DNA of 64,000 bases, taken from positions 23,994-87,993 of the forward strand of contig JAFQLQ010000003.1 of NCBI GenBank assembly GCA_017414505.1, written 5' to 3'. Shown piece by piece: positions 16,665 to 60,173 of the stretch. The notes beneath the pieces are model-generated. The model made no database searches. It saw nothing but the letters and a program-made list of their open reading frames with translations, and was not told where the DNA came from. The position numbers and the translations under genes are program-made. How positions within the stretch are numbered: position 1 is the first letter of the stretch; each line of letters opens with the position of its first letter. The DNA is from Clostridia bacterium (GTDB lineage Bacteria; Bacillota; Clostridia; UMGS1840; HGM11507).

Positions 16665-16734
16665 AGGATAATCCTCCTATAAAATTTCATTTTTACTATT
16701 ATTTTCATAAGTTAAAAAAATAATTCAAAAATCA

Positions 16735-16763
16735 TTGCCAAAATAAATTAATTGTGGTATACT
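16735..16763 (+). promoter_or_regulatory. Sigma-A-type promoter for fhs
   Basis: TTGCCA (16735-16740), a 17-nt spacer, then TATACT (16758-16763) preceded by TGg (extended -10). Confidence 0.45.
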
Positions 16764-16800
16764 TATAATATTAAATTCATAATAGGGGGAGATTGTTATT

Positions 16801-44360: not shown

Positions 44361-44424
44361 TTCATAATTTGTTTATTACAGGTTAAAAATAATAGTGTAT
44401 TCTCCTTTGAAAGGAGTTGACAAA

Positions 44425-44841
44425 ATGAGAAATTTTCTTCAGAATATGGCATATAGCCTGCAAAGGATGATGCAGGGCAGATACGGAGTGGATGAATTTT
44501 CAAGATTTCTGGATATTTCCGGGATAGTATTTTTTGTATTATCGCTTTTTAAACCACTGCGCTTTTTATATTTTGTTGCGGCAGCTTTGTTATTGTGGTC
44601 AATTTTTCGATGCTATTCAAAAAATATTCCTAAACGCTATTCAGAACTTAATAAATACCTGAAAATTAAAAATAAAATAATTCCTGAAATTCAAATTATC
44701 AAAAATCGTATTTCGGGCAGAAAAACTTACAGATATTTCAAGTGTTCCGGGTGTAAAACCCAACTGAAAGTTCCAAAGGGAAAAGGAAAAATTGAAATAT
44801 CCTGTCCTAAGTGTAAAACGGTAATGGTCAAAAAAACATAA
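44425..44841 (+). CDS. Small membrane protein with a C-terminal zinc ribbon
   Basis: Two hydrophobic helices, then CSGC...CPKC. ATG 44425 follows an AAAGGAG SD. Confidence 0.6.
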   Translation: MRNFLQNMAYSLQRMMQGRYGVDEFSRFLDISGIVFFVLSLFKPLRFLYFVAAALLLWSIFRCYSKNIPKRYSELNKYLKIKNKIIPEIQIIKNRISGRKTYRYFKCSGCKTQLKVPKGKGKIEISCPKCKTVMVKKT

Positions 44842-44848
44842 ACTTTTT

Positions 44849-44880
44849 AAAGGCGGTAAGCTGTGTGGCTTATCGCCTTT
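44849..44880 (+). terminator. Hairpin/terminator
   Basis: AAAGGCGGTAAGC pairs with GCTTATCGCCTTT. Short U-run. Confidence 0.5.
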
Positions 44881-44912
44881 AAAAATATTCATCTGTTATT
44901 TGATTTTGGCAC

Positions 44913-44941
44913 TTGACAAGCTTTTTTAAAAAATATATAAT
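44913..44941 (+). promoter_or_regulatory. Sigma-A-type promoter for the hydrolase / DUF2264 block
   Basis: TTGACA (44913-44918), a 17-nt spacer, then TATAAT (44936-44941). Confidence 0.5.
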
Positions 44942-44974
44942 TAAAACATAAAATTTATACCGGAAGTGATGGTT

Positions 44975-46087
44975 ATGAAATTTGAGAAATTACGCGTGTT
45001 TCTTGAGAGTTTGCAGCAAGATTACAGCATACCTTCCTGTGAGTGCAGAATTATAAAAAACAACGAAGTGATTTTTGACTGCAAAGAAGGGGATTATGAC
45101 GAAAATAAAAAATTTTATTTTATATATTCGATGACAAAAATAATCACTGCAGTATCAGCTATGAAGCTTGTTGAACAGGGGAAATTGTCCCTTTGCGATA
45201 ATGTAGAAAAATATCTTCCTCAGTTTTCCGAGCTTACGGTAAATAATGGTGAAAAGATATGGAAAGCAAAAAATAAGCTTACTGTGGAAAATTTACTTTC
45301 AATGCAGGGCGGATTTGACTATAATATAAATTCTGAGCAAATTAAAAACGCCATTAAAAATAACCCCAATGCCTCTACGCAGGAAATAGCTGTGGCAATA
45401 AGCAAAATGCCCCTTCTTTTTGAACCAGGTGAAAATTTTTCTTACAGTCTTTGCTATGATATTCTTGGCGCCATTATAGAAAAAGCTTCAGGAATGCGCT
45501 TTGGAGAATACTTGAAAAAAGAAATTTTTGAACCTCTTGAAATGAAAGATACAACGTTTGATATAAACGATGTTCCAACCGAAAAAATTGTTCCTCACTA
45601 CAGATATAATAATGATAAAGGTTGTGCGGAAGAACTGCCGAAAAGTAATGTATTTGTCTTTTCTCCCGTTTACGAAAGCGGAGGCGCAGGAATTATTTCC
45701 ACCTTTGATGATTATTGTAAATTTGTGTCAGCAATTTCAAGTGGCGGAGTTTCCGAAAACGGATACGTACTTCTGGAAAAAGAAAGTATTGATGAAATTA
45801 CAAAAATACGAATGAATGATAAAATTTTAAGCACCTATTTCAGATACCCTGCGTGGGGCTGTCATTACGGTTTTTCGGTAAGGGTTCTGTTTGATAAAAC
45901 CAAGTGTGAAACTCCTGCGCCGATTGGTTGCTTTGAGCTTACCGGTGCGGCAGGAAGTTATGCAGTATTTGATGTTGAAAATAATATTTCTATTGTCTAT
46001 TTTCAGCACATCAAGGATGTTGTGGATGTTCCTGAATTTGTACATCATAAAATAAGAGATTTAGCATATGAAGAATTACTAAAATAA
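44975..46087 (+). CDS. Beta-lactamase-fold serine hydrolase (paralogous type)
   Basis: S-x-x-K (YSMTKI) and YSLCYD. The start is uncertain (GTG 44966, ATG 44969 or ATG 44975). Confidence 0.8.
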   Translation: MKFEKLRVFLESLQQDYSIPSCECRIIKNNEVIFDCKEGDYDENKKFYFIYSMTKIITAVSAMKLVEQGKLSLCDNVEKYLPQFSELTVNNGEKIWKAKNKLTVENLLSMQGGFDYNINSEQIKNAIKNNPNASTQEIAVAISKMPLLFEPGENFSYSLCYDILGAIIEKASGMRFGEYLKKEIFEPLEMKDTTFDINDVPTEKIVPHYRYNNDKGCAEELPKSNVFVFSPVYESGGAGIISTFDDYCKFVSAISSGGVSENGYVLLEKESIDEITKIRMNDKILSTYFRYPAWGCHYGFSVRVLFDKTKCETPAPIGCFELTGAAGSYAVFDVENNISIVYFQHIKDVVDVPEFVHHKIRDLAYEELLK

Positions 46088-46100: not shown

Positions 46101-47102
46101 ATGGAAAAATTATTTGTAGCTATTCCGGAGGGGGCTGTTAAATCAACATTTGTTCCGGAAAATGTTCAGAAATTTGCAGAAGCAAATTTTGATGTTACCT
46201 ATGCAGAAAAACGTCTTTCAAAAGAGGAACTAAGACCTATTCTTATGAACTATGATGCAGTTCTTACCGGATGGGGAAACTGTATGCTTGATAAAGAAGT
46301 TTTAGAAGGTAACGACCGCCTGAAGCTTATTGTACATACCGGCGGAACCGTAGGTAATCTTGTGGACAGTTATGCTTACGACGCAGGCAAAACTGTTTTC
46401 AGCGGAAATATTATGTATGCGGAATCTGTAGCAGAGGGTGTACTTTCCTATATGCTTATGGCACAAAGAAGAATTCCCCAGTATATAGATGCCGTAAAAA
46501 AAGGTGAGTGGAGAACCGAAGCCGATTTGTGGGAAGGCTTGCTTGATAAAACAGTAGGTATTATTGGTCTTGGAACAATATCCAAATTACTTATTCCGCT
46601 TCTGAAACCCTTCAGAGTTAAAATAAAACTGTTTACACGTTATCTTCCCGATGAAGCATTTATGAAGGAATATAACATTTCCGGTGCATCTTTGGAAGAA
46701 ATTTTCTCTACCTGTGATATTGTTTCGGTTCATTCTGCATTAAATGCGGAAAACAGAGGACTTATTACAAAAGAGTATTTTGAAATGCTTAAGGATAATT
46801 CTCTTTTTATAAACACTTCAAGAGGTGAAGTAACAGACGAGGAAGCTCTGATTGAAGAATTGAAGAAAAACCGTTTCCGTGCAGTTCTTGATGTTTTCCA
46901 TAAAGAACCGCTTGATAAGGATAGTGAATTAAGAAAACTTGAAAATGTTTATTGTATTCCGCATATGGCAGGACCTACCCTGGACAGACGTGAAAAAATA
47001 ACAACAGCTCTTATAAAAGAAGCACGGAATTTCTTTGACGGTAAAAAGAATTCAGAATTTGAAATAGCTGCCGGAGTAGCAAAACGAATGACAAAAATGT
47101 AG
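46101..47102 (+). CDS. D-isomer-specific 2-hydroxyacid dehydrogenase family protein
   Basis: NAD fold GIIGLGTIS and a catalytic Arg/Glu/His pattern (NTSRG, KEPL, PHMAG). Confidence 0.8.
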   Translation: MEKLFVAIPEGAVKSTFVPENVQKFAEANFDVTYAEKRLSKEELRPILMNYDAVLTGWGNCMLDKEVLEGNDRLKLIVHTGGTVGNLVDSYAYDAGKTVFSGNIMYAESVAEGVLSYMLMAQRRIPQYIDAVKKGEWRTEADLWEGLLDKTVGIIGLGTISKLLIPLLKPFRVKIKLFTRYLPDEAFMKEYNISGASLEEIFSTCDIVSVHSALNAENRGLITKEYFEMLKDNSLFINTSRGEVTDEEALIEELKKNRFRAVLDVFHKEPLDKDSELRKLENVYCIPHMAGPTLDRREKITTALIKEARNFFDGKKNSEFEIAAGVAKRMTKM

Positions 47103-47118
47103 TTTGGGAGATTTAAGT

Positions 47119-49008
47119 ATGCTTTGCAAAAGAGATATAAAAGATTATGCAGTTAAAATTTGTGTTCCTCTTATGGAACGTAATATGAGAAGAATGCAAA
47201 ACGGTGACTGGGGATTCAAACCTGATCAGGTTGGCTATGTTCCCACATTCCTTGAAAATTTCTGCCGTCCTTTCTGGGGAATTGCTCCTGTTATTTCCGA
47301 TGGCGAGGACATAATTCTTGATGCAAACGGAGAAAAAATAACTGTTTTTGAATATATGAGACTGACTCTTAACAAAGGTCTTTCTCACGGTGAAAAGTAT
47401 TCGTGGGACACACATAAGGATATTATGAATATGAATCCTTATTGTTATGAAAATCAGAATATAACTGAGCTTGCAGGACTTATGGTTGGCATTTATTTTG
47501 CGAAGGATCAGCTTTGGGAGCCACTTTCTGAAGCAGAAAAAGAAATGTATGCAAAAGAACTGTACGAAATGGCTGAGATTGCATATGACAATTCCTGGCC
47601 TAACAACCATTATTGGTTTCCGTTATTTGTATTTACAGTTTTAAAACGTTTTGGATATAATTTTGAAAGACTTGACGAAATGATTGACGGAGGTCTTGCG
47701 TTTCTTAACGGACTGTATTTAAGCGACGGCTGGTTTGTTGACGGTGCTTTCGGAAGATTTGATTATTACGAAGCCTGGGCACTTCACATGTATCCTCTTT
47801 TATGGACTCTTATTGCAGATGAAAGTTTTAATAATTATGAAGAGCATAAGAAAAAATTTATTTCAAGAACCAACGAATTTATTGAATATTTTACCCATTG
47901 GTTTGATGCAAACGGTGCAAATGTAGCTTTCGGCCGTTCTCTTACATATCGTTTTGCGGCTTGTTCGCTGTTTCCGGTAGCTGTTCTTGCAGGGTGTGAT
48001 GTAAATCCCTCTCTTGCAGGCAGAATAACTGCAAAAAATATAGAATTTTTCAAAAACAACGTAAGAAATGAAGAATCAGATATTTTACCGGAAGGCTACT
48101 TGTATCACGCACCGGCTATAATTGAGGGCTACACATCAGACGGCGGTGCGTACTGGTGCTGTAAAGCTTTTTTTGCGCTTTTAATTGACGATGATCATCC
48201 TTTCTGGGATTATGACAAAGCCTTGCTTCCATCCGAAAAAGGGGATTTCCTTGTTGATGCAAAGCATAAAGATATAAATCTTATTTTTGAAGGTCATAAC
48301 GGAATTGTCAATTTGTTCAGCAACACTGCATATACTACCGGAAAAAGACCGTTCAGCTTTGGTAATGAGAGAAGCTGGTATTCAAAATTCGTATATAATT
48401 CCGCAGTGGGATTTGGTTGTTCTGTAATAGAAAAAATGTCAGTTGACAGTATGATTTCTCTTGTTACAGAAGACGAAACAATGTGTTCCCACCGTCTTGC
48501 TTTTGAAAATCTTGGTGTTGAAAACGGAATTTTACATTCCAGACATATTCCTTTTACAAATGATAAGGAAAGTACTGTTGAATCCTGGATTTTACCTATG
48601 GGCGAATACCACATTCGTATTCATAAGGTTAAGCTTTCCCAGGAATATTATGTAAAAGAAGGCGGATTTTCTGTTGGCAGCTGGGACGATTACAGACCTT
48701 CGAAATTTGGTGGAGATACTGCATCTGTTGAAAATTATGATTATATTTCAGTTATGAAAAGCGTTTCTACTGCAGAAATTGAAATGAATTATGAGGATAC
48801 ACAGGCAAACTTCCATTTGTATGCACCTCTTGCCGGTTATCCTATTTATAAAACCAAAGAAGCGTTAAAACCCGGTGAATACATTTTTGCATCAGCTTTT
48901 GCAGTAAAAAAAGTTGACGATAATATAATTCTGCCCGATATTGTAATTAAAGATGGCGGAGTTGAAATCATAGGAAAAGAAAAAAATATATTTGTAGAAA
49001 TAAAATAA
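47119..49008 (+). CDS. DUF2264-like protein, copy 1 (unknown function)
   Basis: About 630 aa with a helical N-terminal two-thirds and a beta-rich C-terminus. Blocks such as FGRSLTYRFAA are what I associate with DUF2264. ATG 47119 aligns with the start of the paralogue. Confidence 0.7.
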   Translation: MLCKRDIKDYAVKICVPLMERNMRRMQNGDWGFKPDQVGYVPTFLENFCRPFWGIAPVISDGEDIILDANGEKITVFEYMRLTLNKGLSHGEKYSWDTHKDIMNMNPYCYENQNITELAGLMVGIYFAKDQLWEPLSEAEKEMYAKELYEMAEIAYDNSWPNNHYWFPLFVFTVLKRFGYNFERLDEMIDGGLAFLNGLYLSDGWFVDGAFGRFDYYEAWALHMYPLLWTLIADESFNNYEEHKKKFISRTNEFIEYFTHWFDANGANVAFGRSLTYRFAACSLFPVAVLAGCDVNPSLAGRITAKNIEFFKNNVRNEESDILPEGYLYHAPAIIEGYTSDGGAYWCCKAFFALLIDDDHPFWDYDKALLPSEKGDFLVDAKHKDINLIFEGHNGIVNLFSNTAYTTGKRPFSFGNERSWYSKFVYNSAVGFGCSVIEKMSVDSMISLVTEDETMCSHRLAFENLGVENGILHSRHIPFTNDKESTVESWILPMGEYHIRIHKVKLSQEYYVKEGGFSVGSWDDYRPSKFGGDTASVENYDYISVMKSVSTAEIEMNYEDTQANFHLYAPLAGYPIYKTKEALKPGEYIFASAFAVKKVDDNIILPDIVIKDGGVEIIGKEKNIFVEIK

Positions 49009-49082: not shown

Positions 49083-50975
49083 ATGCTTAGCAGAAATGAA
49101 ATAAAAGAATATGCTTTAAAAATATGTATTCCGCTTATGGAACGCAATGCTCGCAGAGATGCAAAGGGAGATCTGGCTTTTAAGCCGGATCAGGTGGGTT
49201 ATGTTCCTGCATTTCTTGAAAATTTCTGTAGACCGTTCTGGGGAATTACACCAATACTTGCAGGCGGAGAAGAAATAAATATCAATGTTGACGGTAAAAA
49301 AATATCAATACTTGATTATCTTATAAATACCCTTAACAGAGGCTTATCCCACAACGAAGAATATTCGTGGGACAGATATAAAAAGGATTTTAATCCTTAT
49401 GCGTATGAAAATCAGAATATTACTGAGCTTGCAGGACTTATGCTTGGCTTGTTCTTTGCAAGAGAACGGCTTTGGGAGCCGCTTTCAAAGGACGAAAAAG
49501 ACCTTTATGCTAAGGAAATATATGAAATGGCAGAGGTCGCTTTTGACCATTCCTGGCCTAATAATCACTATTGGTTTCCACTGTTTACTTTTACCGTTTT
49601 AAAACGTTTCGGATATAATTTTGAAAGAATAGACGGGATGCTTGAATACGGTCTTGAATTTCTTGACAGTCTTTATATTGACGACGGTTGGTATAAGGAC
49701 GGTGCGTTTGGCAGATTTGATTATTACGAAGCGTGGTCACTTCATTTGTATCCTCTTTTGTGGACTCTTATTGCAGATGAAACCTTTAAGGATTACGAAA
49801 AATATAAAAATAAATATATTGAAAGAACCAATGCATTTATTGATTACTATACGCATTGGTTTGCGGCAGACGGTGCCAATGTTCCTTTTGGGCGTTCACT
49901 TTCATACCGTTTTGCGGCGTGTGCACTTTTTCCTGCGGCGGTTCTTGCAGGATGTGATATTAATCCGTCGCTTGCCGGCAGAATTACAGCAAAAAATATT
50001 GAATTTTTCAAAAATAATGTTAAAAACGAAGAATCTGACATTATCCCTGAGGGTTACCTGTATCAAAGCCCCTGTGTTATTGAGGGGTATACCTCTGATG
50101 GTGGTGCATATTGGTGCTGTAAAAGTTTCCTTGCTCTTTTGATGGATGAAAATCATCCTTTCTGGGATTATGACAAGGCGGAGCTTCCTTCTGAAAAAGG
50201 AGATTTCCTTGTGAATGCAAAACATAAGGATATAAACATACTTTTTGAAGGTCATAACGGAATTGTAAATATGTATAATAATACTGCGCAGTATTATTAT
50301 GATGGAAAAATGACTCACCGTTTCGGTAATGTGCGAAACTGGTATTCCAAATTTGTGTATAATTCGGCAACAGGCTTCGGATGTTCAGGAGTTGATAATA
50401 TATCAATTGACAGTATGATAGCGCTTGAAACAAAAGACCTTTCAATGACTTCGCACCGATTTGGATTTGAAGATATGGGGTATAACGACGGAGTTTTACA
50501 TTCAAAGCATATTCCGTTTGCAAATGATCAAAAAAGCACCATTGAAACCTGGCTTGTTCCGCTAAACGGATGTCATGTTCGTATTCACAAAGTAAAGCTT
50601 GATAATGAATATTTTGTAAAAGAAGGCGGATTTTCTGTAAGCAGCTGGGATGATTATAAGCCCGTTACAATTGACGGTAATTTCATTTCAATTGCCAATC
50701 ACGAATATGTGTCTCTTATGAAAACGGTTTCAGATGTTGAATTTGAGATGGCTGTTGATCCTACCCAGGCAAGCTATCATATGTATGCGCCATTGGCGGC
50801 TTATCCCGTGTTTACTACAAAAGAAGTGCTAAAGCCCGGCGAATACATTTTTGCATCAGCATTTGCAGTAAAAAAAGCAACAGATGGTGATTTTTACTTA
50901 CCTGAAATGAAAATAACAGATTCAGGTGTTGTAATTTTAAATAAAAGCGAAGAAAAAATTATTAAAATTGATTAA
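49083..50975 (+). CDS. DUF2264-like protein, copy 2 (tandem paralogue)
   Basis: Collinear with copy 1 along the whole length. By eye about three quarters of residues are identical in the N-terminal two-thirds (not computed). Confidence 0.7.
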   Translation: MLSRNEIKEYALKICIPLMERNARRDAKGDLAFKPDQVGYVPAFLENFCRPFWGITPILAGGEEININVDGKKISILDYLINTLNRGLSHNEEYSWDRYKKDFNPYAYENQNITELAGLMLGLFFARERLWEPLSKDEKDLYAKEIYEMAEVAFDHSWPNNHYWFPLFTFTVLKRFGYNFERIDGMLEYGLEFLDSLYIDDGWYKDGAFGRFDYYEAWSLHLYPLLWTLIADETFKDYEKYKNKYIERTNAFIDYYTHWFAADGANVPFGRSLSYRFAACALFPAAVLAGCDINPSLAGRITAKNIEFFKNNVKNEESDIIPEGYLYQSPCVIEGYTSDGGAYWCCKSFLALLMDENHPFWDYDKAELPSEKGDFLVNAKHKDINILFEGHNGIVNMYNNTAQYYYDGKMTHRFGNVRNWYSKFVYNSATGFGCSGVDNISIDSMIALETKDLSMTSHRFGFEDMGYNDGVLHSKHIPFANDQKSTIETWLVPLNGCHVRIHKVKLDNEYFVKEGGFSVSSWDDYKPVTIDGNFISIANHEYVSLMKTVSDVEFEMAVDPTQASYHMYAPLAAYPVFTTKEVLKPGEYIFASAFAVKKATDGDFYLPEMKITDSGVVILNKSEEKIIKID

Positions 50976-50994
50976 CATAAAAGGGGAGAAAAAT

Positions 50995-53040
50995 ATGAAA
51001 AGAGCCTTCAGCACGGTAGCGTGTATGGATTCTTCATATAAAGAAGTTGTTGAAAGTGCCGCAAAAGCGGGTATGAGTGCAGTTGAAATAAGACAGGACA
51101 ACGACGGTTCTCTGTTTGGATTAAACAAAGAACAAATTCCTGAAATGATGGATTACTTTAAAAAATTCGGAGTTGCAGTATCTGATCTTGGAACAGGTAT
51201 AACTGTTTTCGAATATGATGCCGAAAAGGTAAAACAGGCAGATAAAATGCTTGAGATTGCTTCTATGGCAGAGGCAAAGGGCATTCGTGTGTTTCTTGGA
51301 AAATTTGATTCAAAATTTTCCAATCCCGGAGAATTTTGTTACGATGGAATAGTAAAAACATTGAAAGAAATGTGCGCCTGCGCCGTAAAATACGGTGTTG
51401 AAATATGGGTGGAAACACATAATGCCTTTTCTACCGGAAAAGTTCTTAAAAAGCTTTGTGAGGATGTTGCCTGCGACAATATGAAAATTATATGGGATAT
51501 AATTCATTCAATTGAGCAGGATGAAACTCCGGAGGAAACAGTAAATTATATAGCAGATAAAATTGCCCATATACATATAAAGGACGGGGTTCATCCGGAT
51601 GATGATAACGAAATCAACTATGTATATACCCGTCTTGGCTACGGTGAATTACCTGTGGCGGAAATTATTTCATTGTTAAAAAGCATAAATTATAACGGAT
51701 ACCTTTCTCTTGAATGGGAAAAAGCCTGGCGTCCTGAAATTTACGATGCATATGAAAATCTTGATGAAATTCTTGCCGCTTACAACAGCTTTATGGATGG
51801 TATTGAGAATAATCTGTTACCTATGATAAGCAGCGATAAATGGGAAACTGTTGTTCCGAAAGTAAAAAAATTGGCACGTTTTTCAAAAGGAAAATATAAC
51901 GATACTCTTAATATTAACATTAACAGCAAAAGCTACGGAGTTGGAAAATGGGTTGCAACAGCTGATGTGGAAGAAGGCAAAACATACGATTTTTCCGTAA
52001 GTGCCAAAACAGAAGCTGACATTACGGATATTTACGTCATTTATACCACTTTCAGAAAAGACGGAAGTATGATTTTAAGAGACCATGCTCATTTTTCAGA
52101 GGTTGTGGATGGTTTTGTAAGATTCAGCGATAAAATTGAAGCTCTTCCCGACACAGTAAGTGTAAGAATTGAATTATGGCTGAAAGGCTATAAGGGCGAA
52201 GTTTTATGGTATGCACCTGTGTTGAGAGAAAGCGAAGAAAGAAAAGAGAGAAAGGCAAAAATTGCTATAGGCTATATCCCTCCCAAAGACGATGGAATAT
52301 ACACCATTGAAAGTAATGTTGAATCCATAATAAAAGTTATTGATAATTCTGCAAAAAAAGGTGCAGATTTAATAGTTCTTGGTGAATGTATGTATGAAAG
52401 AGGCGTTCCAAAAACATCGCTTGCCCAGTACGCTGAGAGGGATAACGGTTCTATGTGCACAATGATTTCCGGGAAAGCAAAAGAGTATAATGCTTACATA
52501 GTATATAATTTCCATGAGAATGAAAACGGAGAATACTATAATACTTCTGTGCTTTTTGACAGAAAAGGTAAAATTGTCGGTAAATACAGAAAAACACATC
52601 TTACCGTCACAGAATTTGATGAGGGTATGACTCCGGGGGACAGTTATCCTGTTTTTGAAACAGATTTCGGAAAAGTTGGTATGCTTATCTGCTTTGACCA
52701 TTATTTTTCTGATACTGCAGAAAAAATTGCGGCAAACGGTGCTGAAATTATATGCATTTCATCTGCAGGAGATGCGGCGGAAAAATGTATTGCAAGAGCA
52801 ATGGACACCGGAATTTATTTAGCTGTTTGCGGATGGAATCACGAAAATACTCACGATTGGGGTGCAGGAAGAATCGTTGCACCGGATGGAAGTATTTTAG
52901 CTGATACCGAAAGCCTTGACGAGCCTGCATTTGCTGAAATAGACCTTAATAAGCCCGTAAGAAGAGGATGGCTTTCTTTAGGTCCGGCAGATTCGGAATT
53001 TTACGGTGTATATAAATATGAAAAAAATGTTCATTGTTAG
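50995..53040 (+). CDS. Fusion protein: xylose-isomerase-like TIM barrel + beta-sandwich-like middle + carbon-nitrogen hydrolase (nitrilase superfamily)
   Basis: The N-terminal ~275 aa are of the sugar-phosphate isomerase/epimerase type (IWVETHN, HIHIKDG, SLEWE). The C-terminal domain has a Glu-Lys-Cys triad context (VLGE, YRKTHL, MLICFD). ATG 50995 follows GGGGAG. Confidence 0.75.
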   Translation: MKRAFSTVACMDSSYKEVVESAAKAGMSAVEIRQDNDGSLFGLNKEQIPEMMDYFKKFGVAVSDLGTGITVFEYDAEKVKQADKMLEIASMAEAKGIRVFLGKFDSKFSNPGEFCYDGIVKTLKEMCACAVKYGVEIWVETHNAFSTGKVLKKLCEDVACDNMKIIWDIIHSIEQDETPEETVNYIADKIAHIHIKDGVHPDDDNEINYVYTRLGYGELPVAEIISLLKSINYNGYLSLEWEKAWRPEIYDAYENLDEILAAYNSFMDGIENNLLPMISSDKWETVVPKVKKLARFSKGKYNDTLNININSKSYGVGKWVATADVEEGKTYDFSVSAKTEADITDIYVIYTTFRKDGSMILRDHAHFSEVVDGFVRFSDKIEALPDTVSVRIELWLKGYKGEVLWYAPVLRESEERKERKAKIAIGYIPPKDDGIYTIESNVESIIKVIDNSAKKGADLIVLGECMYERGVPKTSLAQYAERDNGSMCTMISGKAKEYNAYIVYNFHENENGEYYNTSVLFDRKGKIVGKYRKTHLTVTEFDEGMTPGDSYPVFETDFGKVGMLICFDHYFSDTAEKIAANGAEIICISSAGDAAEKCIARAMDTGIYLAVCGWNHENTHDWGAGRIVAPDGSILADTESLDEPAFAEIDLNKPVRRGWLSLGPADSEFYGVYKYEKNVHC

Positions 53041-53112: not shown

Positions 53113-55371
53113 ATGAAACGTTTTTTAAAAACAAAAAGAACTGTTGCGGTTTTTTGGCTGATTTCATATGTGTTTTTACTTCTGATTCCTGTTTTCGGAA
53201 ACGCATATATACTTATGAATGTAAACCACGCGGTTAATCAGGAGGTTAATCTTAAATATTCATATTTCCTGGAGAGTATGGGTGCTGATATCGATATGTA
53301 TTTAAGAGAAATCAATTCGTTGTCGTATGCGATAAGAGATAACGAAGCGGTAAGAAAAATTGCTTCCTGTACAGAAAAAAACACACAGTTTTTATTTGAT
53401 TTGAAAATGACAGCAGAGGAAGTCGACAGATTAAAAAGTGAATTTAAAAATGAGCTTTCTGTTTATATTTATCTTCCTGCAACGGATATGGTAATATATA
53501 ACGGTGCGTATTCTACGTTAAACGAATTTATTGATTATAAATTAAACAGTGCGGTATATAATTTTGATGACTATATAAAACTGCTTGGAAGCGGAACAAC
53601 GGCATTCAGGGATATAACCGTAGATTCTTTGAAAAAATATACATTTTTGTTCCCGATTGTTACACAAGGTGCAAATAATGCAGTTTTAGGCGTGAGCATA
53701 CCGGAGAAATCATTGTTTGGAAAAGAAATTGATATGGAAAAGAACGATATTGTTATTCTTTCTAAAAACGATGATATTTATATCAGCAGTACCGATATAA
53801 GCGAAGAAGTGCTTAATAAAATAAACGAGCTTAATGAAACAGAAATCGGTTATGTAAGAATCAACAATGAATCGGCAGGCATTTCGTACATAAAATCCGA
53901 AAGTCTGAATTTCTATAAATATGTATTTATAGACCGTTCCGGAACCTTGCACAGCGCATCAAAAAAAGTTGTGGCTATTGGTATTGCTATAAGCATTGTA
54001 TCAATTTTGCTTATGCTTCTTGTGCTTTACAGGCTTTACGGCTGGAATTATCTTAACATTAAAGATATTATGAATACTTTGAGCGATTTTGATAATGATG
54101 AGCGTAATGTTGAGAATGAATTTGAGCTTATAAAGAGCAGAATTGAAGTTGCCAAAAACCGCCAGAGTGCAATGGAACGTGATGTTAATTCAAGATTAAA
54201 AGCTCTTAAAGAAGAATTTATAATTGATATGTTAACCGGCGCTGTAGGCAACGAAGAATACATAAATGAAGGCTTAAAAAAATACGATATCCGTTTTGAC
54301 GGTAACTTATTCTGTGTATCCGTGCTGCGTGTTAAGGAATACGGTGTTCTGGAAAACACAAATATTAAAAATATACACTATATAATTCAGAATATAATGA
54401 ACGATATTCTGAAAAACGAAAGCTATTGCAGCTGCGAATATAATGGACTTTTATTTTATATATTCTGCTTTAAAGAAGAAAAAGACATAAACGAAAGACT
54501 TTACAGTATTTTATCCGAAAGCTGTGAAGTTACAAAAATGGCAACTGAAATAGTGTTTACATCTTCCACAAGTGAGGCGGGTGAGGGAATCAGTTCGCTT
54601 CCCAAGCTTTATGAAAGTGCTTTGAGCGTTCTTAATTTAAGTGAATTTTACGGAATGGAAGAGCATATTTTCAAAAAAGATCTGGATGCACAGATGATGG
54701 ATAATACGCCTGTATATTCTGCAAATGTGGAAAATGAAATTATAGTAAGCATAAAATCAGGAGATAAAAAGCAATTTTTCGAAACAATAGATACATTGTT
54801 TAACGATTACGTGCTGGTTAATCACAAATGGGTGTTTATGGGACTTGCATATTCTGTACTTAACAGTATTTTAAAGGTTATAGATATGTCGGGTTCAGGT
54901 AAAACAGAAGAATCTTTTGATATGCTTAATTCCTTCAGAGATTACGACAATATTGAAAAAATCAAAGATTTTATAAAAAAATACGGTATTCACGCAATGG
55001 AGCTTTTCGACAGTGAAAAAGAAGAAAAATCGGAAATTTATGAAAAAGCAATAAAATACATCAATGAACATTATACCGAAAGTGACCTTAACGTTGCAAG
55101 GGTAAGTGAAAATATTGGTGTAACTGCTATTTACCTCGCTTATATCGTAAAACAGAATTCCGGAGTTAAACTAAGTGAATACATTGCAAAACTGCGTGTA
55201 GACAGAGCAAAAGTTCTTCTTGATGAGGACGTTGAAATGAAGGTTGAAGAGGTTGCAAAAATGTCAGGCTTCTGGCAGAACAGAACTTTTTATAACACCT
55301 TTAAAAAATACACAGGTCTTACACCTACACAATACAGAATGCTGAAAAACAATAATGAAAATCAACAATAG
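53113..55371 (+). CDS. Membrane-spanning AraC-family one-component regulator (2 TM, extracytoplasmic sensor-like domain, cytoplasmic HTH)
   Basis: TM1 VAVFWLISYVFLLLIPVF, then about 250 aa of loop, then TM2 VVAIGIAISIVSILLMLLVLY. C-terminal AraC dual HTH (VARVSENIGVTAIYLAYIVK..., VAKMSGFWQNRTFYNTFKKYTGLTPTQYR). Confidence 0.8.
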   Translation: MKRFLKTKRTVAVFWLISYVFLLLIPVFGNAYILMNVNHAVNQEVNLKYSYFLESMGADIDMYLREINSLSYAIRDNEAVRKIASCTEKNTQFLFDLKMTAEEVDRLKSEFKNELSVYIYLPATDMVIYNGAYSTLNEFIDYKLNSAVYNFDDYIKLLGSGTTAFRDITVDSLKKYTFLFPIVTQGANNAVLGVSIPEKSLFGKEIDMEKNDIVILSKNDDIYISSTDISEEVLNKINELNETEIGYVRINNESAGISYIKSESLNFYKYVFIDRSGTLHSASKKVVAIGIAISIVSILLMLLVLYRLYGWNYLNIKDIMNTLSDFDNDERNVENEFELIKSRIEVAKNRQSAMERDVNSRLKALKEEFIIDMLTGAVGNEEYINEGLKKYDIRFDGNLFCVSVLRVKEYGVLENTNIKNIHYIIQNIMNDILKNESYCSCEYNGLLFYIFCFKEEKDINERLYSILSESCEVTKMATEIVFTSSTSEAGEGISSLPKLYESALSVLNLSEFYGMEEHIFKKDLDAQMMDNTPVYSANVENEIIVSIKSGDKKQFFETIDTLFNDYVLVNHKWVFMGLAYSVLNSILKVIDMSGSGKTEESFDMLNSFRDYDNIEKIKDFIKKYGIHAMELFDSEKEEKSEIYEKAIKYINEHYTESDLNVARVSENIGVTAIYLAYIVKQNSGVKLSEYIAKLRVDRAKVLLDEDVEMKVEEVAKMSGFWQNRTFYNTFKKYTGLTPTQYRMLKNNNENQQ

Positions 55372-55385: not shown

Positions 55386-56525
55386 ATGAATATTTTAACT
55401 AATGAAGAAAAAATTTGGGTAGATTCTCAATGGGAAAAGCTTGATAAAAAGCTCAGTAAAATTGCTGTACGCTCCAGAGAAAAAATACCTTTTCATTCCA
55501 CAGATTTTATGCACGATAACAGAGGCGGAGAATTAATCCATTTATGGACAAACGGTTTCTGGCCGGGACTTATGTGGTTAATGTATATCGGAACAAAGAA
55601 TGACGAATACAAAAAAACGGCGGAAACAACCGAAAAATGGTTGGATGAAGCAATGTCAACTCCTGAAAGACTTGGCCACGATGTTGGTTTTATGTGGCGT
55701 CTTGCTTCCGGACCGCATTATGAAATTGATAAAAATCAGGAATCCTGGAACCGTATGCGCAGAGCAGCCAACGTGCTTATGGCAAGATATAATCCTGCAG
55801 GCGGATTTATAAGAGCCTGGAACTGGGGCGCAACAAAGGGTGAAAAAGCAGGCTGGACAATTATTGATACTATGATGAATCTTCCTTTGTTATATTGGGC
55901 ATCTTTACAGGACGAGGATCCAAGATTTAAAATGGCGGCTATGAACCATACCGATAAAGCTATGACTTCTCATGTTCGTCCAGATGGAAGTGTAAGACAC
56001 GTTGTAAAGCACGATCCCTTTACAGGCGAGTTTATTGGAGAAGATGAAACTGCGTGCCAGGGATACGGCGTAGATTCTTCATGGTCGAGAGGTCAAGCTT
56101 GGGCACTTTACGGCTTTATTCTTGGATATATTCATACCGGTAAGCAGGAGTATCTTGATACTTCCAAGCGTGTAGCACATTATTTTATTGCAAATGTATG
56201 TAAAGACTGGCTTCCAAGAGCCGATTTCAGAAGTCCTGCAGAACCTGTTTATTACGATACAAGCGCAGCCGGTTGTGCAGCTTGCGGACTTATTGAAATA
56301 GCAAAAATTGTTCCTGAGTTTGAAAAAAGAATGTATCTTGATGCTGCGATAAGTATTCTTAAAGCGACAGAACAATTTGCAGACTGGACAACCGATACGG
56401 ATTATATTATCGGTATGGCTTCCGGAGCATACAATAACGAGCAAAATAGTAATTTTATATTTGCTGATTATTATTACGCAGAAGCTATATATAAGTTAAA
56501 AGGTTTTGAACCGCTTTTCTGGTAA
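55386..56525 (+). CDS. ugl: GH88 unsaturated glucuronyl hydrolase
   Basis: Block-by-block match to Bacillus sp. GL1 UGL, including both catalytic Asp contexts (GHDVGF, TIIDTMMNLPLL), plus SWSRGQAWALYGF and ADYYYAEA. Confidence 0.9.
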   Translation: MNILTNEEKIWVDSQWEKLDKKLSKIAVRSREKIPFHSTDFMHDNRGGELIHLWTNGFWPGLMWLMYIGTKNDEYKKTAETTEKWLDEAMSTPERLGHDVGFMWRLASGPHYEIDKNQESWNRMRRAANVLMARYNPAGGFIRAWNWGATKGEKAGWTIIDTMMNLPLLYWASLQDEDPRFKMAAMNHTDKAMTSHVRPDGSVRHVVKHDPFTGEFIGEDETACQGYGVDSSWSRGQAWALYGFILGYIHTGKQEYLDTSKRVAHYFIANVCKDWLPRADFRSPAEPVYYDTSAAGCAACGLIEIAKIVPEFEKRMYLDAAISILKATEQFADWTTDTDYIIGMASGAYNNEQNSNFIFADYYYAEAIYKLKGFEPLFW

Positions 56526-56579: not shown

Positions 56580-56723
56580 GAATGAGAAAGCTGTAATAAG
56601 ATGCATAGTTTTATTATATTAGTTTTTTTCATATTATATTATTTATTTACTCTTGTTTAAAAGGTTAAAAATGTTTTATAATTATAGCATGATAATGTAA
56701 AAAAATGAATGGAGGAATTTTTA

Positions 56724-58295
56724 ATGAACAAAAAATTAATGGCGGCAGTCGCTTTTATTGCGGCTACAGGCATGGTTTTAGGCGGATGCGGAAAAAAGGA
56801 AGAAAGTTCTGCACCTCAGGGTGAAATTATTCTGGCAGAAGACGGAACCATATATCCTATGTCTGCTTCGGAAGGAGAATTAAGTCTTTCTGTTTTCACA
56901 CCTATCGACAGTGAAACTGAAAAAATAAAATACTGGAGTGAAGCAACAGGTGTTAAGCTTGAATTTGCTTCTTCCAAAGCCAGTGAAGCTCTTTCTTTAA
57001 TGCTTGCTTCAAACGATTTATCCGATGTAATTATTGCAGACCTTGCTACACAGCCGGGTGGTGTACAAAAATATGCTGATGATGGCGTAATAGTTGATAT
57101 TACAGAGCATATTGATGAATACGCTCCAAATCTTAAGGCGTGGTTTGATAAGGATGAAACCATCAGAAAAATGGCTACAACAGATGACGGTAAGCATTAT
57201 TTCTTCCCCTGTATAAGAGCAGAAGCAGTTTTAAGATCCTACAGAGGATTTGTTGCAAGAAAAGATTTACTTGATAAATACGGTCTTACTGAGCCCGAAA
57301 CCATTGAAGAGTGGGAAAATGTTTTAAAAACCTTTAAAGATAACGGAATGTCAGCACCATTGTCATATGATATGACTGCTTTTGAGCCGGCTGGCGGATT
57401 TATGTCTGCATATGGTGTTATTCCTAATTTCTATCTGGAAAACGGTGAAGTTAAATACGGATACCTTGAAGACGGTATGAAGGAAGCGTTGAAAACACTT
57501 TCAAGATGGTATTCCGAAGGTTTGCTTGACAAAGATATTATAAATGCTTCAAGCAATCAGGATTTAAACCTTACAAATAACAAAACAGGTATGACATTCC
57601 TTACCTCCGGCGGCGGAATGGGTAAATATTTAAGACCTCACAACGGCGGCGATGAATCCTTTGACCTTGTTGGCTTAAAGCTTCCTGTTCTTAACAAAGG
57701 TGACAAGCCGAAATTCAGTTCATCAACATTCCCGATTACTACTGCAAACAACGGTTTTATAACTTCTCAGTGTGAAAATATTGAGCTTGCAATGCGTTTC
57801 CTTGATTTTGGTTATTCCGAAGAAGGAAATATGCTTATGAACTTCGGTAAGGAAGGCGTAAGTTATGAAATGGTAGACGGTTATCCCAAATATACCGAGC
57901 TTATTATGAACAATCCTGACGGAAAATCTGTTGGTGATACCATGACAGAATATTTCTTCTCAAACTGGGCAGGACCCTTCGCGCAGGATGTTCGTTACAT
58001 AGAGCAGTACAATCAGTTCCCGCGTCAGCAGGAAGCTTTAAAGCTTTGGGGTGAAATGATGACAATGGAATCCACAATGCCTCAGGTTACATTTACAACT
58101 GAAGAAACTGCAAAAATCAGTTCTATTATGAATAACATCAATACCTGTGCAAACGAAAATATGTTTAAATTTATTATGGGTATAAAATCAGTTGATGCTG
58201 ACTATGAAGCATTTGTTGCTGAACTTAAAGCTTTCGGAATTGACGAAGCTATAGAAATTTACAAAGCGGCTCTTACAAGATACAACAACCGTTAA
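56724..58295 (+). CDS. Extracellular solute-binding lipoprotein of a carbohydrate ABC importer (LplA-like)
   Basis: Lipobox LGGC after the signal peptide. About 520 aa of the large SBP type. Followed by LplB/LplC-type permeases. ATG 56724 follows GGAGGA. Confidence 0.85.
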   Translation: MNKKLMAAVAFIAATGMVLGGCGKKEESSAPQGEIILAEDGTIYPMSASEGELSLSVFTPIDSETEKIKYWSEATGVKLEFASSKASEALSLMLASNDLSDVIIADLATQPGGVQKYADDGVIVDITEHIDEYAPNLKAWFDKDETIRKMATTDDGKHYFFPCIRAEAVLRSYRGFVARKDLLDKYGLTEPETIEEWENVLKTFKDNGMSAPLSYDMTAFEPAGGFMSAYGVIPNFYLENGEVKYGYLEDGMKEALKTLSRWYSEGLLDKDIINASSNQDLNLTNNKTGMTFLTSGGGMGKYLRPHNGGDESFDLVGLKLPVLNKGDKPKFSSSTFPITTANNGFITSQCENIELAMRFLDFGYSEEGNMLMNFGKEGVSYEMVDGYPKYTELIMNNPDGKSVGDTMTEYFFSNWAGPFAQDVRYIEQYNQFPRQQEALKLWGEMMTMESTMPQVTFTTEETAKISSIMNNINTCANENMFKFIMGIKSVDADYEAFVAELKAFGIDEAIEIYKAALTRYNNR

Positions 58296-58313
58296 TTTAT
58301 TGGAGGAATACTA

Positions 58314-59285
58314 ATGGCAACCGATGTTAAAAACATCACAAAAAGGGAGAAGCGTAAGGCTTCTCCCGATAAAAAGCCCTGGATAGTACGGTTCGGCAGA
58401 GATATAAAAATGCACAAGGGTGCATATATGCTGGCATTGCCGGTAATCCTTTTTTATATTTTGTTTTGCTATAAGCCTATGGGCGGACTTATTATTGCAT
58501 TTAAAAATTATGCACCTATAAAGGGTATATGGGGAAGTTCGTGGGCAGGATTTTCTCATTTTGAGGATTTTCTAACAAATCCTTACTTCTGGCGATTAAT
58601 GAAAAATACGCTTACAATCAGTATAAGCAGTCTTATTTTTTCATTTCCTGCACCTATTATTCTTGCACTTTTACTTAACGAAGTCAGAAACAAACTGTTT
58701 TTAAGAGGCTCTCAGATGATAATGTATTTACCGCATTTTATCTCTTTGGTGGTCATCTGCGGTATGGTTATTCAGTTTACCGGTTCTGACGGAATTATAA
58801 ATGATTTCCTTGCTATATTCGGTGTTGAAAGAAAATCCTTCCTTAACTATCCTGAATATTTTGTACCTGTTTATATAATTTCTGATATTTGGGCAGGTAT
58901 CGGCTGGGGATCAATTATCTATATGGCAGCACTTACCGGAATTGACAGCTCACTTTACGAAGCAGCAGTAATTGACGGTGCCGGAAGATGGAAACAGACT
59001 ATTTATGTAACTCTTCCCGGCATACTTCCGACAATCATTGTTATGTTCCTTATGAGAGTTGGTCAGCTTTTATCGGTAGGCTATGAAAAAATAATTTTGC
59101 TTTATAACCCGCTTACATACGAAACTGCTGATATTATTTCCACTTACGTTTACCGTAAGGGTTTGCTTGAGCAGAGCTACAGCTTTTCTTCGGCGGTAGG
59201 TTTGTTTAATTCCATAATCAGCTTTATTCTTTTAACCTTTGCAAACGGTATGAGTAAACGCTTGGGTGAAGGTTCGTTATGGTAA
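58314..59285 (+). CDS. Carbohydrate ABC transporter permease (LplB-type)
   Basis: Multi-TM protein with EAA-loop-like AALTGIDSSLYEAAVIDGAGRW. Confidence 0.85.
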   Translation: MATDVKNITKREKRKASPDKKPWIVRFGRDIKMHKGAYMLALPVILFYILFCYKPMGGLIIAFKNYAPIKGIWGSSWAGFSHFEDFLTNPYFWRLMKNTLTISISSLIFSFPAPIILALLLNEVRNKLFLRGSQMIMYLPHFISLVVICGMVIQFTGSDGIINDFLAIFGVERKSFLNYPEYFVPVYIISDIWAGIGWGSIIYMAALTGIDSSLYEAAVIDGAGRWKQTIYVTLPGILPTIIVMFLMRVGQLLSVGYEKIILLYNPLTYETADIISTYVYRKGLLEQSYSFSSAVGLFNSIISFILLTFANGMSKRLGEGSLW

Positions 59286-59318
59286 AAAATAATATCAGAG
59301 TAAGGAAGTGGTAAAAAT

Positions 59319-60173
59319 ATGAAAATTACAACAGGTCAGCGGATATTTTCAGTATTTAATTACATATTTATAACATTTCTTGTAATTGTTACTCTTTATC
59401 CGTTCTGGCATATAGTTATGGCGTCTTTCAGTAATTCTTATGAACTTATGGCACATTCAGGATTGCTTTTAAAGCCTGTTGGCTTCAGCCTGCAATCCTA
59501 TAAGCTTGTTTTAAGCGATAACGCTGTTATAAGAGGCTTTATTAACACAGTTATTCTGCTTATAACAAAAAATACGCTTTCTATTTTGCTTACGCTTTTC
59601 GGAGCTTATGTTCTTTCAAGAAAGCTTATGATTACACCTGTTATGTCGTTTATGGTAGTTGTAACAATGTTCTTCAGCGGAGGTCTTATCCCTACATATC
59701 TTAATGTTCGTTCTCTGGGACTTGATAACTCCTTTGGAGCATTGATTTTTCCAACTGCTATAAGCACATTCAATCTTATTATTTTAAGAACTGCGTTTTA
59801 CGGCGTTCCCGACAGTCTTGAAGAAGCCGCACATCTGGACGGAGCGGGGGATTTAAGAATTCTTTTTGAAATTCTTGTTCCGCTTATTCTTCCGTCGATT
59901 ATGGTTGTTGCACTTTACTATATTGTTGGCGTGTGGAACTCGTGGTTCGAGGCAAGTATTTATTTAAGAGACCGAAAGTTGTTCCCGTTACAACTTATTC
60001 TGCGAGAAGTACTTGTTGAAAAACAAATAAATATGGACAGCGATTCGGAAACAACGGCAGAAAGCATTCAGTATGCAATTATGACGGTTTCAACTGTACC
60101 GGTTCTTATATTCTACCCGTTTATGCAGAAGTATTTTGTAAAAGGTGCAACTGTTGGTGCGGTAAAAGGTTAA
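59319..60173 (+). CDS. Carbohydrate ABC transporter permease (LplC-type)
   Basis: Multi-TM protein with EAA loop LEEAAHLDGAGDLRI. Confidence 0.85.
   Translation: MKITTGQRIFSVFNYIFITFLVIVTLYPFWHIVMASFSNSYELMAHSGLLLKPVGFSLQSYKLVLSDNAVIRGFINTVILLITKNTLSILLTLFGAYVLSRKLMITPVMSFMVVVTMFFSGGLIPTYLNVRSLGLDNSFGALIFPTAISTFNLIILRTAFYGVPDSLEEAAHLDGAGDLRILFEILVPLILPSIMVVALYYIVGVWNSWFEASIYLRDRKLFPLQLILREVLVEKQINMDSDSETTAESIQYAIMTVSTVPVLIFYPFMQKYFVKGATVGAVKG

Follow-up and report, generated by a model that had tools for sequence, protein, structure and literature searches.

A 64,000-nucleotide stretch of the genome of a Clostridia bacterium (assembly GCA_017414505.1, contig JAFQLQ010000003.1, positions 23,994 to 87,993; hereafter the window) encodes a 681-amino acid (aa) protein in which a xylose-isomerase-like TIM barrel, a beta-sandwich resembling carbohydrate-binding modules (CBMs) and a nitrilase-superfamily carbon-nitrogen (CN) hydrolase follow one another in a single open reading frame (ORF). 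By its sequence, this ORF is a genuine, conserved tri-domain enzyme with the catalytic residues intact in both enzymatic domains. Our leading, still tentative, reading is that the TIM barrel would act together with a D-isomer-specific 2-hydroxyacid dehydrogenase (HADH) encoded nearby in processing 5-keto-4-deoxyuronate (DHU), the product of GH88 enzymes, and that the sandwich and the CN hydrolase (sandwich+CN) would form a separable carbohydrate-directed amidase.

The reading frame runs from an ATG at 50995 to a TAG stop at 53038-53040, i.e. 681 codons without an internal stop. A first-pass annotation of the same DNA, made without database searches, had described a three-part fusion, and this description is borne out by the uninterrupted ORF, by the Pfam domains and by an all-beta middle part in the predicted structure. 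A frameshift or stop between the domains, which that annotation had named as evidence to the contrary, was not found, the frame being open throughout. All six motifs it had cited are present in the translation, namely IWVETHN (residues 137-143), HIHIKDG (192-198) and SLEWE (238-242), and, for the CN hydrolase, LIVLGE (459-464), KYRKTHL (530-536) and GMLICFD (562-568). The stop codon of the preceding gene (50973-50975) lies 19 nucleotides (nt) ahead of the ATG. An alternative in-frame TTG at 50968 would add nine residues; homologues begin at the MK(R/K)AFSTV position. A Pfam scan of the 681-aa protein returned PF01261 and PF00795 only, and the AlphaFold2 model, built with 37 homologues, was confident throughout (pLDDT 93.7, pTM 0.87), with residues 284 to 426 all-beta. 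Since no hydrophobic, signal-like stretch is apparent on direct reading of the N-terminus, which forms the first barrel strand, the protein is probably cytoplasmic.

In the TIM half, PF01261 matched residues 20-245 (1.8e-28; 100.3 bits against a cut-off of 31.1), and residues 1-273 adopt a (beta/alpha)8 barrel fold with Z scores of 28.5 to 8z1i, 27.0 to 1i6n and 26.6 to 3dx5; AsbF and IolE stand at 26.6, allulose epimerases at about 25.5 and YcjR at 24.5. Residues E140, H142, D168, H171, E174, E177, H192, H194, K196, D197, E240 and E242 are invariant in 37/37 full-length homologues; among these, we take E140, D168, H194 and E240 to be the candidate Glu-Asp-His-Glu divalent-metal site of xylose isomerase-like barrels. 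The domain missed all NCBIfam equivalog cut-offs considered, i.e. those of IolO (37 vs 300 bits), Hyi (32.5 vs 465), FrlC (31.8 vs 305), D-psicose 3-epimerase (23.6 vs 300) and IolE (19.9 vs 290), and its matches to 5-keto-L-gluconate epimerase (2.3e-9) and hydroxypyruvate isomerase (5.7e-8) both stay far under cut-off. The type of reaction catalysed by the TIM barrel cannot be assigned from homology. No KduI/IolB domain (PF04962), i.e. no homology to the cupin KduI, and none to the RpiB-like DhuI was found in the Pfam scan of the fusion.

Because the fold search with the whole model barely tested residues 274-417, the middle domain was modelled alone. The stand-alone model of residues 272-429 (pLDDT 96.5) is a beta-sandwich of CBM type. 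Its best fold match was a phage tailspike domain (5w6h, Z 14.7), next to CBM70 (4d0q; Z 14.5, root-mean-square deviation (rmsd) 2.9, 138 residues aligned of a 161-residue chain) and CBM61, 16, 4 and 22 with Z scores of 10.2-13.2 (2xom and 2zew 13.2, 4bj0 12.6). Foldseek agrees on a CBM-type sandwich (E about 1e-6), and no Pfam family was found over residues 273-430. Of note, R362 is invariant in 50 sequences, split forms included, and W283, Y331, Y347, E393 and K397 are conserved in at least 90 % of the same sequences; these residues may form a sugar-binding site.

The CN hydrolase is recognized by PF00795 at residues 436-652 (2.7e-37; 128.9 bits against a cut-off of 23.2). As a fold, the domain (residues 418-681) is closest to the PH0642 amidase (6ypa; Z 30.6, rmsd 2.6, 242 residues aligned) and is also near Nit2 (2w1v; Z 29.8, Foldseek E 1.2e-19) and the formamidase AmiF (Z 28.6). 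Residues E464, K533, E540 and C566 are invariant in 37/37 full-length homologues, and in alignments to mouse Nit2 (2w1v) and PH0642 (1j31) the Glu, Lys and Cys of these enzymes fall on E464, K533 and C566, so that the catalytic triad proposed at first pass is retained on alignment. Again, the equivalog cut-offs of NCBIfam were missed, i.e. for N-carbamoylputrescine amidase (80.7 vs 410 bits), archaeal nitrilase (72.9 vs 500), deaminated glutathione amidase (67 vs 355), formamidase (45.8 vs 406) and aliphatic amidase (32.1 vs 427), and the ESM Atlas cluster names of the relatives read generically 'carbon-nitrogen hydrolase' only.

The fusion is not confined to the window. Both Pfam domains occur together in 54 of the 120 clusters listed from a collection of 5.8 billion proteins, nearly all of them ~680 aa long and sharing 36-62 % identity with the fusion, and the genome itself (2.38 Mb, 53 contigs, 88 % complete) carries a second full-length copy on contig C14 with 53 % identity (contig, genome, locus and protein numbers are ours). 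The search for further fusions suggested by the first-pass annotation thus found that the architecture recurs. When the representatives at 50 % identity were searched exhaustively, 280 proteins matched at E <= 1e-30; among the best 150 representatives, about six were full-length fusions and the rest either TIM-only proteins (~270 aa) or sandwich+CN proteins (~410 aa). Class-wide, a match at E <= 1e-40 was present in 9 of 399 scored genomes, so that the fusion family is rare.

There are several indications that the two halves can part or find other partners. In genome G091 (locus L089), a 287-aa TIM gene stops where a 413-aa sandwich+CN gene begins, precisely at the border of TIM barrel and sandwich (residue ~270 of the fusion), and the metagenome locus L098 shows the same gene order. 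Protein P0079 (903 aa, 7 member sequences, longest contig 83 kb) joins a TIM barrel with 50 % identity over residues 1-271 to a heparinase II/III-like domain and lacks the sandwich+CN part. Of P0075, P0076 and P0078, which are listed with TIM and sandwich but no CN hydrolase and were considered as a natural third architecture, P0075 is probably a frameshifted fusion, since it passes into unrelated sequence right after ELWLKGY. In a quick tree built from the TIM domains, a clade with 99 % support in the Shimodaira-Hasegawa-like approximate likelihood ratio test (SH-aLRT) is filled by the fused forms, and the split forms, TIM-only forms and P0079 are nested within it; the TIM-only forms of loci with the order GH88-HADH-TIM fall outside it. 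The order of fusion and fission is tentative, since the tree came from a quick search and was rooted at its midpoint.

The pairing of TIM orthologues with an HADH gene is near-obligate. Each of the eight distinct loci that carry the gene in fused or split form has HADH in its cluster: two genes upstream of the fusion in the window, adjacent upstream at the C14 paralogue and in L035, adjacent downstream in L001 (same organism as L117), L002 and L104, adjacent in L089 (order as in L098), and one gene away in L090. A metagenome scan with patterns that were in effect TIM-specific yielded 80 loci, 24 of them with a TIM identity of at least 33 % and 56 below; loci were regarded as informative (17/24 and 34/56, respectively) if each flank measured at least 1.1 kb or if HADH was found. 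Among the 17 informative loci of the closer group, HADH directly adjoins the TIM gene on the same strand in 13 and is near-adjacent in three more (right after the fused gene in L104 and L117, and with one GH154 gene between in L101), giving 16/17 with L121 as the exception; these counts include kin, which are not independent, and same-organism duplicates (L098/L089, L117/L001). Below 33 % TIM identity, HADH is adjacent in only 3 of the 34 informative loci. A CN hydrolase match was present in four of the 17 loci (L098, L104, L117 and L124) and absent from the other 13, over up to 8 kb per side.

GH88 or GH154 genes often lie next to the TIM barrel gene. Gene orders include GH88-HADH-TIM (L112, L113 and L115), TIM-HADH-GH88 (L110) and PL8-HADH-TIM-AraC-ABC (L107); GH154 adjoins TIM in L099, L100, L101 and L112, and in L001 a gene for a DUF4962/heparinase II/III protein lies directly upstream. 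The carbohydrate context claimed at first pass was confirmed: a uronate-polymer setting was found in every close locus examined, and the opposite pattern, a fusion occurring mostly outside carbohydrate contexts, was not seen. By comparison with solved structures, the HADH itself has generic phosphoglycerate or glyoxylate reductase relatives, which give no hint of its substrate.

Proteins of ~400-490 aa consisting of sandwich+CN alone are common in Verrucomicrobiota, Planctomycetota, Acidobacteriota and Bacteroidota. By tblastn, they span query residues ~275-663 at 27-33 % identity, with the sandwich always N-terminal of the CN domain. A signal-peptide-like hydrophobic N-terminus, i.e. a 12-residue segment whose mean hydropathy exceeds 2.0 among the first ~60 residues (a threshold of our own, applied to mechanically chosen ORF starts), was present in 18 of the 21 stand-alone homologues listed from Gram-negative glycan degraders and in none of the four from Clostridia. 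These apparently exported nitrilase-superfamily proteins with their CBM-like domain would make up a family that seems uncharacterised. The signal-like segment is followed by a W-x(2-4)-PR-[DE]-E-I-x-P motif, which recurs in L004, L009, L013, L016, L022, L027, L031, L037 and others, and L004 contains two stand-alone sandwich+CN genes in tandem. The neighbourhoods of distant sandwich+CN genes (27-35 % identity) were scanned at 28 loci, with up to two ORFs per side (127 of 139 ORFs, 12 large ORFs being left out). The neighbours comprised Amidohydro_2 (5), GFO/IDH/MocA (4), esterases (4) and ThuA (2), as well as one 3-keto-disaccharide hydrolase domain and one sulfatase, and no single conserved partner emerged among the 127 neighbour ORFs of these loci. 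In the Clostridia genome G323 (L092), a sandwich+CN gene lies amid genes of hexuronate catabolism, namely for altronate dehydratase, a mannitol-dehydrogenase family protein and KDPG aldolase, with HADH 7.5 kb off. Genes for uroporphyrinogen decarboxylase-like (URO-D) proteins flank the CN hydrolase gene both there (L092:7827-11517) and in L124 (2075-3211 and 12208-13260), two unrelated loci with an HADH in each.

Since the TIM-HADH pair stands beside GH88, GH154 and lyase-like genes, and since P0079 even joins the TIM barrel to a lyase-like domain, the pair most likely processes DHU. The TIM step would be a keto-sugar isomerisation or epimerisation and the HADH step an NAD(P)H-dependent reduction, in a route non-homologous to KduI/KduD and DhuI/DhuD. 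As it is normally the 2-oxo-acid group itself that HADH enzymes reduce, the route may run via different intermediates. In the part of PMC12838403 available to us, KduI or DhuI with KduD or DhuD are the only enzymes named for the DHU step.

As for the second half, it is possible that sandwich+CN acts as a separable amidase module, in which the CBM-like domain would hold the carbohydrate and Cys566 would cleave an amide-type decoration, i.e. either a primary carboxamide (a uronamide or carbamoyl group) or an N-acyl group. A carbohydrate-directed amidase is suggested by the CBM-like domain, by the apparently exported homologues in glycan degraders and by the esterase neighbours. A carboxamide or carbamoyl decoration is slightly favoured over N-acyl by analogy, since the closest CN relatives hydrolyse terminal amide or carbamoyl groups. 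With the amide removed, the residue would become available to the dehydratase, which depends on the carboxylate, and to the GH88 and TIM/HADH steps; in this case, the fusion would unite two steps of one catabolic route rather than form a strict channel. The two halves look like separable modules of one pathway, because the TIM barrel occurs mostly without the CN hydrolase but with HADH, because sandwich+CN is widespread without the TIM barrel, and because of the lyase-like fusion in P0079. It is tempting to speculate that both parts hold at once, although we regard this as rather improbable: the TIM barrel with its obligate HADH would then be a third non-homologous DHU route, and sandwich+CN would found a family of nitrilase-fold carbohydrate-active amidases, lacking a signal peptide in Clostridia but, as it seems, exported in Verrucomicrobiota, Planctomycetota, Acidobacteriota and Bacteroidota, which would strip uronamide, carbamoyl or N-acyl decorations so that lyases, dehydratases and GH88 can act.

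Several points weigh against a DHU route joined to a glycan amidase. Every functional step in it is drawn from neighbourhood and fold, and the fold of the TIM barrel does not discriminate between isomerase, epimerase, dehydratase and hydratase relatives (Z 22-28 for all). A KduD-type step is not typical HADH chemistry, and the TIM-only relatives in L005, L093 and L094 have no adjacent HADH. KduI/IolB-family genes occur in all three checked genomes with a TIM-HADH pair (G000, G091 and G400); since they coexist with it, the idea that the TIM barrel is a simple stand-in for a missing KduI was rejected. With regard to the amidase, the neighbours of the distant sandwich+CN genes are heterogeneous over the 28 loci and many of them are unrelated genes, the closest CN relatives (Nit2, PH0642 and AmiF) act on small molecules, not glycans, and the CBM-like domain could be a mere oligomerisation or scaffold domain. 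Finally, we know of no amide-bearing sugar in xanthan. KduI/IolB-family genes were not found in G323, G027 and G065, genomes that carry sandwich+CN genes only.

The model put forward in the first-pass annotation was that both enzymatic domains act in turn on one amide- or N-acyl-bearing sugar (acid) and that the intermediate is channelled, e.g. with the amide or N-acyl group first taken off by the amidase, after which the TIM barrel isomerises, and possibly deaminates, the product. It could explain why the fusion has been retained in the 54 of 120 clusters listed, down to 36 % identity, why the split genes overlap at stop and start in L089, and why the fusion appears as if ancestral in its clade (SH-aLRT 99 %), in which TIM-only forms are nested (quick tree, midpoint root). 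A distant TIM (29 %) and CN hydrolase (31 %) that are adjacent and overlapping on contig C9, and a CN hydrolase 1 kb from the TIM-HADH pair in L124, point in the same direction. However, the constant partner of the TIM barrel is HADH and not the amidase: no CN hydrolase match was found over up to 8 kb per side in 13 of the 17 informative TIM-orthologue loci, PF01261 is absent among the scanned neighbours (up to two ORFs per side, 127 of 139 ORFs) of the 28 sandwich+CN loci, full-length fusions make up only about six of the best 150 representatives at 50 % identity, and in P0079 the TIM barrel is fused to a lyase-like domain instead. With the TIM barrel mostly found without CN hydrolase and sandwich+CN mostly without TIM, the channelled reaction is not supported as stated, and we consider a two-step reaction on one substrate unlikely. 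That the fusion is an assembly or sequencing artefact merging two genes can be practically dismissed: no evidence for it was found, the frame is uninterrupted, the same architecture occurs in the 54 of 120 clusters listed, from several sources, in the paralogue of the same genome and in the fusions of L001, L002, L090 and L104, the inter-domain model is confident (pTM 0.87), and the probable frameshift artefact in P0075 runs the opposite way.

Two further explanations do away with one half of the proposed route each, and both appear very unlikely to us. The CN domain could be a Nit2/omega-amidase-like housekeeping or repair enzyme for small keto-acid amides arising near reactive keto-uronates, in which case it would not be carbohydrate-active and the sandwich would be a structural spacer. 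This would fit its best matches, namely Nit2 (7e-21; Z 29.8), the PH0642 amidase, whose structure was solved with glutaramide (Z 30.6), and formamidase (Z 28.6), as well as the fact that Nit proteins are known in other fusions (NitFhit, 1ems, Z 27.7), but it sits poorly with scores far under the NCBIfam cut-offs (67 against 355 bits for deaminated glutathione amidase), with a CBM-like domain conserved together with the CN domain across phyla, and with the many homologues that are apparently exported and neighboured by esterases, lyases and sugar oxidoreductases. Alternatively, TIM and HADH could be a pair of hydroxypyruvate isomerase and glycerate/hydroxypyruvate reductase, acting not on an unsaturated uronate but on a small C3 acid that stems from a substituent of the polymer (pyruvate ketal, glycerate or lactate). 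The solved relatives of HADH do include glyoxylate/hydroxypyruvate reductases (9.6e-29), and the TIM barrel weakly matches hydroxypyruvate isomerase models (5.7e-8); yet the latter reach 32.5 against 465 bits, 5-keto-L-gluconate epimerase scores slightly better (2.3e-9), and the pair lies directly by GH88 or GH154 in many loci, besides the TIM-lyase-like fusion of P0079. In favour of a C3 acid, the PL8 enzymes of the window resemble xanthan lyases, which release pyruvylated mannose according to the part of the source available (bioRxiv 10.1101/2021.06.02.446819), and a hydroxyacid dehydrogenase of unassigned role is conserved in the xanthan utilisation regions of two actinobacteria, Paenarthrobacter ilicis and Microbacterium sp. 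XT11, both without GH88 as far as described in the accessible part of PMC12772297. Regardless, we retain as our tentative reading a TIM-HADH pair acting on DHU and a separable, carbohydrate-directed sandwich+CN amidase.

Table 1. Fusion gene, its domains and the neighbouring genes (positions in the window)
Feature	Position	Strand	Remarks
Two serine beta-lactamase-fold proteins (esterase or D-aminopeptidase-like)	43179..46087	+	Head of gene run
HADH	46101..47102	+	Conserved TIM partner; Pfam, adjacency
DUF2264/GH154-type copy 1, putative beta-glucuronate dehydratase	47104..49008	+	PF10022 3.4e-69
DUF2264/GH154-type copy 2	49083..50975	+	Directly 5' of fusion; PF10022 7.5e-71; 9o4u 1.1e-17
Shine-Dalgarno-like AGGGGAG	50982..50988	+	6 nt 5' of ATG; direct sequence reading
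Whole fusion ORF, TIM barrel + CBM-like beta-sandwich + CN hydrolase	50995..53040	+	681 aa; coordinates include the stop codon
Xylose-isomerase-like TIM barrel	50995..51810	+	Residues 1-272; Pfam, alignment, fold search
CBM-like beta-sandwich	51811..52284	+	Residues 273-430; separate model, fold matches, conservation
Nitrilase-superfamily (CN) hydrolase with E464, K533, E540, C566	52285..53037	+	Residues 431-681
Long AraC-family regulator	53113..55371	+	752 aa; Pfam; same type after C14 paralogue and L090 fusion
GH88 unsaturated glucuronyl hydrolase (UGL)	55386..56525	+	Bacillus UGL 1vd5 2.9e-53; Pfam
ABC importer: solute-binding protein + two permeases	56709..60173	+	Pfam
PL8 lyase nearest xanthan lyases	60189..64000	+	Extends beyond window end

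The operon around the fusion (Table 1) would serve to import and break down a polysaccharide with glucuronic acid, which its PL8 lyases suggest to be xanthan-like. Downstream of the window, the contig encodes another PL8, a Lyase_N protein and proteins with SLH domains. Both PL8s match xanthan lyases (8.4e-75 and 2.6e-82) better than chondroitin AC lyase (1e-55 to 4e-59), and hyaluronate lyases are weaker matches, too. Related loci contain GH94, GH130 and GDSL or other esterases, which are also a feature of xanthan-type loci in the part seen of bioRxiv 10.1101/2021.06.02.446819; GDSL or other esterases, enzymes that likewise take off decorations, lie beside the fusion or a related gene in L002, L089, L090, L104 and the C9 locus. 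Copy 2 of the DUF2264/GH154-type proteins matches solved beta-D-glucuronic acid dehydratases (9o4u 1.1e-17, 9nwf 8.4e-17). According to the available part of PMC12269599, the former GH154 family dehydrates terminal beta-glucuronate to the 4,5-unsaturated form, priming it for GH88; copy 1 is read as a putative dehydratase on account of this report and of the structure match of copy 2.

The two beta-lactamase-fold genes at the head of the run (43179-44360 and 44966-46087) are separated by a 600-nt gap. Their best NCBIfam model is AcmB (methyl acetate hydrolase), far under cut-off, followed by AmpH, PBP4B and D-aminopeptidase, and a role as esterases or amidases acting on decorations of the polymer is conceivable. 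AraC regulators of ~750 aa, like that following the fusion, recur by TIM/HADH genes (L085:17211-19460, L090:5655-7895, L107:8868-11066 and L110:12788-15043). They have a long N-terminal region without Pfam match, the L090 protein shares 37 % identity with that of the window over its full length, and they are probably sensors of the inducer.

The paralogous locus (L085, contig C14:78001-97500) encodes PL8 lyases, SLH-domain proteins and unknown proteins of 850-950 aa; its HADH (14170-15186) and fusion paralogue (53 % identity; 15203-17245) are directly followed by the 750-aa AraC regulator and then, on the opposite strand, by a GH127 gene. Paired large surface proteins lie 5' of HADH/TIM in L089 (12992-17723), L090 (13612-18366), L098 (1484-6218), L085 (11608-14148) and L096 (3421-7836). 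One is ~850 aa long with weak or absent SLH and no other Pfam match, the other (~725 aa) contains an MG2-like stretch besides three SLH repeats, and both are candidates for undescribed cell-surface glycan processing or binding. On contig C9 (L087:5788-9417, minus strand), a CN hydrolase gene (331 aa, no sandwich; 31 % identity) overlaps the following TIM gene (284 aa; 29 % identity). The two are bordered by genes for a GDSL esterase and GFO/IDH/MocA oxidoreductases, and a melibiase-like GH, an ABC importer, SLH and NagA/NagB-like genes are near; from its composition, this is a second, independent TIM-CN pairing with another type of dehydrogenase. A canonical KduI/IolB-family gene (C14:40165-41070, L088) stands by a third, shorter PL8 (723 aa), a BNR/sialidase-like and a GH28-like protein, and is followed by a 286-aa gene without Pfam match at 1e-5.

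The superfamilies joined here are textbook knowledge; their combination, the CBM-like connector and the fixed uronate-polysaccharide setting are absent from the literature searched. In our searches (subscription journals and supplements lay outside them), no paper turned up that describes the architecture, a route for DHU by TIM and HADH, or an amidase of nitrilase fold linked to a CBM; this agrees with the first-pass annotation, whose authoring model recognised no described pathway for the fusion; the HADH partner, the GH154 dehydratases and the CBM-like nature of the middle domain go beyond that annotation. Likewise, the searches returned nothing relevant linking a CN hydrolase or nitrilase to PL8, GH88, GH154 or polysaccharide utilization, nothing joining an unsaturated glucuronyl hydrolase with a hydroxyacid dehydrogenase, and nothing on DUF2264. 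In term searches of four texts on xanthan, none mentions nitrilase; carbon-nitrogen hydrolases and TIM barrels are absent from the two searched for them, and isomerases from three, the sole isomerase in the fourth, PMC12772297, being mannose-6-phosphate isomerase. Database labels for the fusion are generic, i.e. 'TIM barrel protein' in two NCBI entries and an automatic ESM Atlas cluster name.

If TIM and HADH handle DHU, predictions based on KduI/DhuI and KduD/DhuD miss a pathway, a gap that would affect predictions for gut, rumen and soil bacteria growing on glycosaminoglycans, xanthan and other glucuronate polymers. If sandwich+CN is a glycan amidase, this would place a carbohydrate-modifying activity on the nitrilase fold and add amide-decorated polysaccharides as a nutrient class. 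To our knowledge, the known carbohydrate de-N-acylases have folds other than nitrilase.

In comparison with known systems, the proposed analogy to KduI/KduD and DhuI/DhuD is functional, i.e. a gene pair of isomerase type and NAD(P)-dependent reductase type beside GH88-type genes. There is no homology: the TIM barrel is neither a cupin like KduI nor of the RpiB fold like DhuI, and HADH is not a short-chain dehydrogenase/reductase like KduD and DhuD. The window likewise resembles the GH154/BcGDH-GH88 cycle of PMC12269599 in pairing two DUF2264/GH154-type genes with GH88 in one operon; however, its GH154-type proteins are 630 aa long, with an extra C-terminal domain relative to the solved enzymes of ~400 aa, and TIM, HADH and CN hydrolase partners are not mentioned in the part of that report available to us.

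At the level of single domains, the TIM barrel has its fold in common with the Art22 isomerase (8z1i), IolI (1i6n), IolE, AsbF, the D-allulose 3-epimerases and YcjR (Z 24.5-28.5), at only 13-20 % identity, and its conserved acidic and His residues are candidate metal ligands. The sandwich shares its topology with CBM70, the hyaluronan-binding module of Streptococcus pneumoniae hyaluronate lyase (4d0q), and with CBM4, 16, 22 and 61, but differs in its 8-16 % identity, in the lack of a Pfam match and in its internal position in a protein without signal-peptide-like N-terminus, the likeness being one of predicted fold only. The CN domain has the alpha-beta-beta-alpha fold and the Glu, Lys and Cys in common with Nit2/omega-amidase and PH0642 (25-29 % identity), to which the fusion adds an N-terminal TIM barrel and CBM-like sandwich and a polysaccharide locus. 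A parallel to the fusion as such is NitFhit (1ems), the classic 'Rosetta stone' case, in which a Nit-like domain is joined to an unrelated enzyme encoded by separate genes in other organisms, as is the case here; the partner in the present fusion is a TIM barrel with a sandwich rather than a HIT hydrolase, and its context is bacterial carbohydrate degradation.

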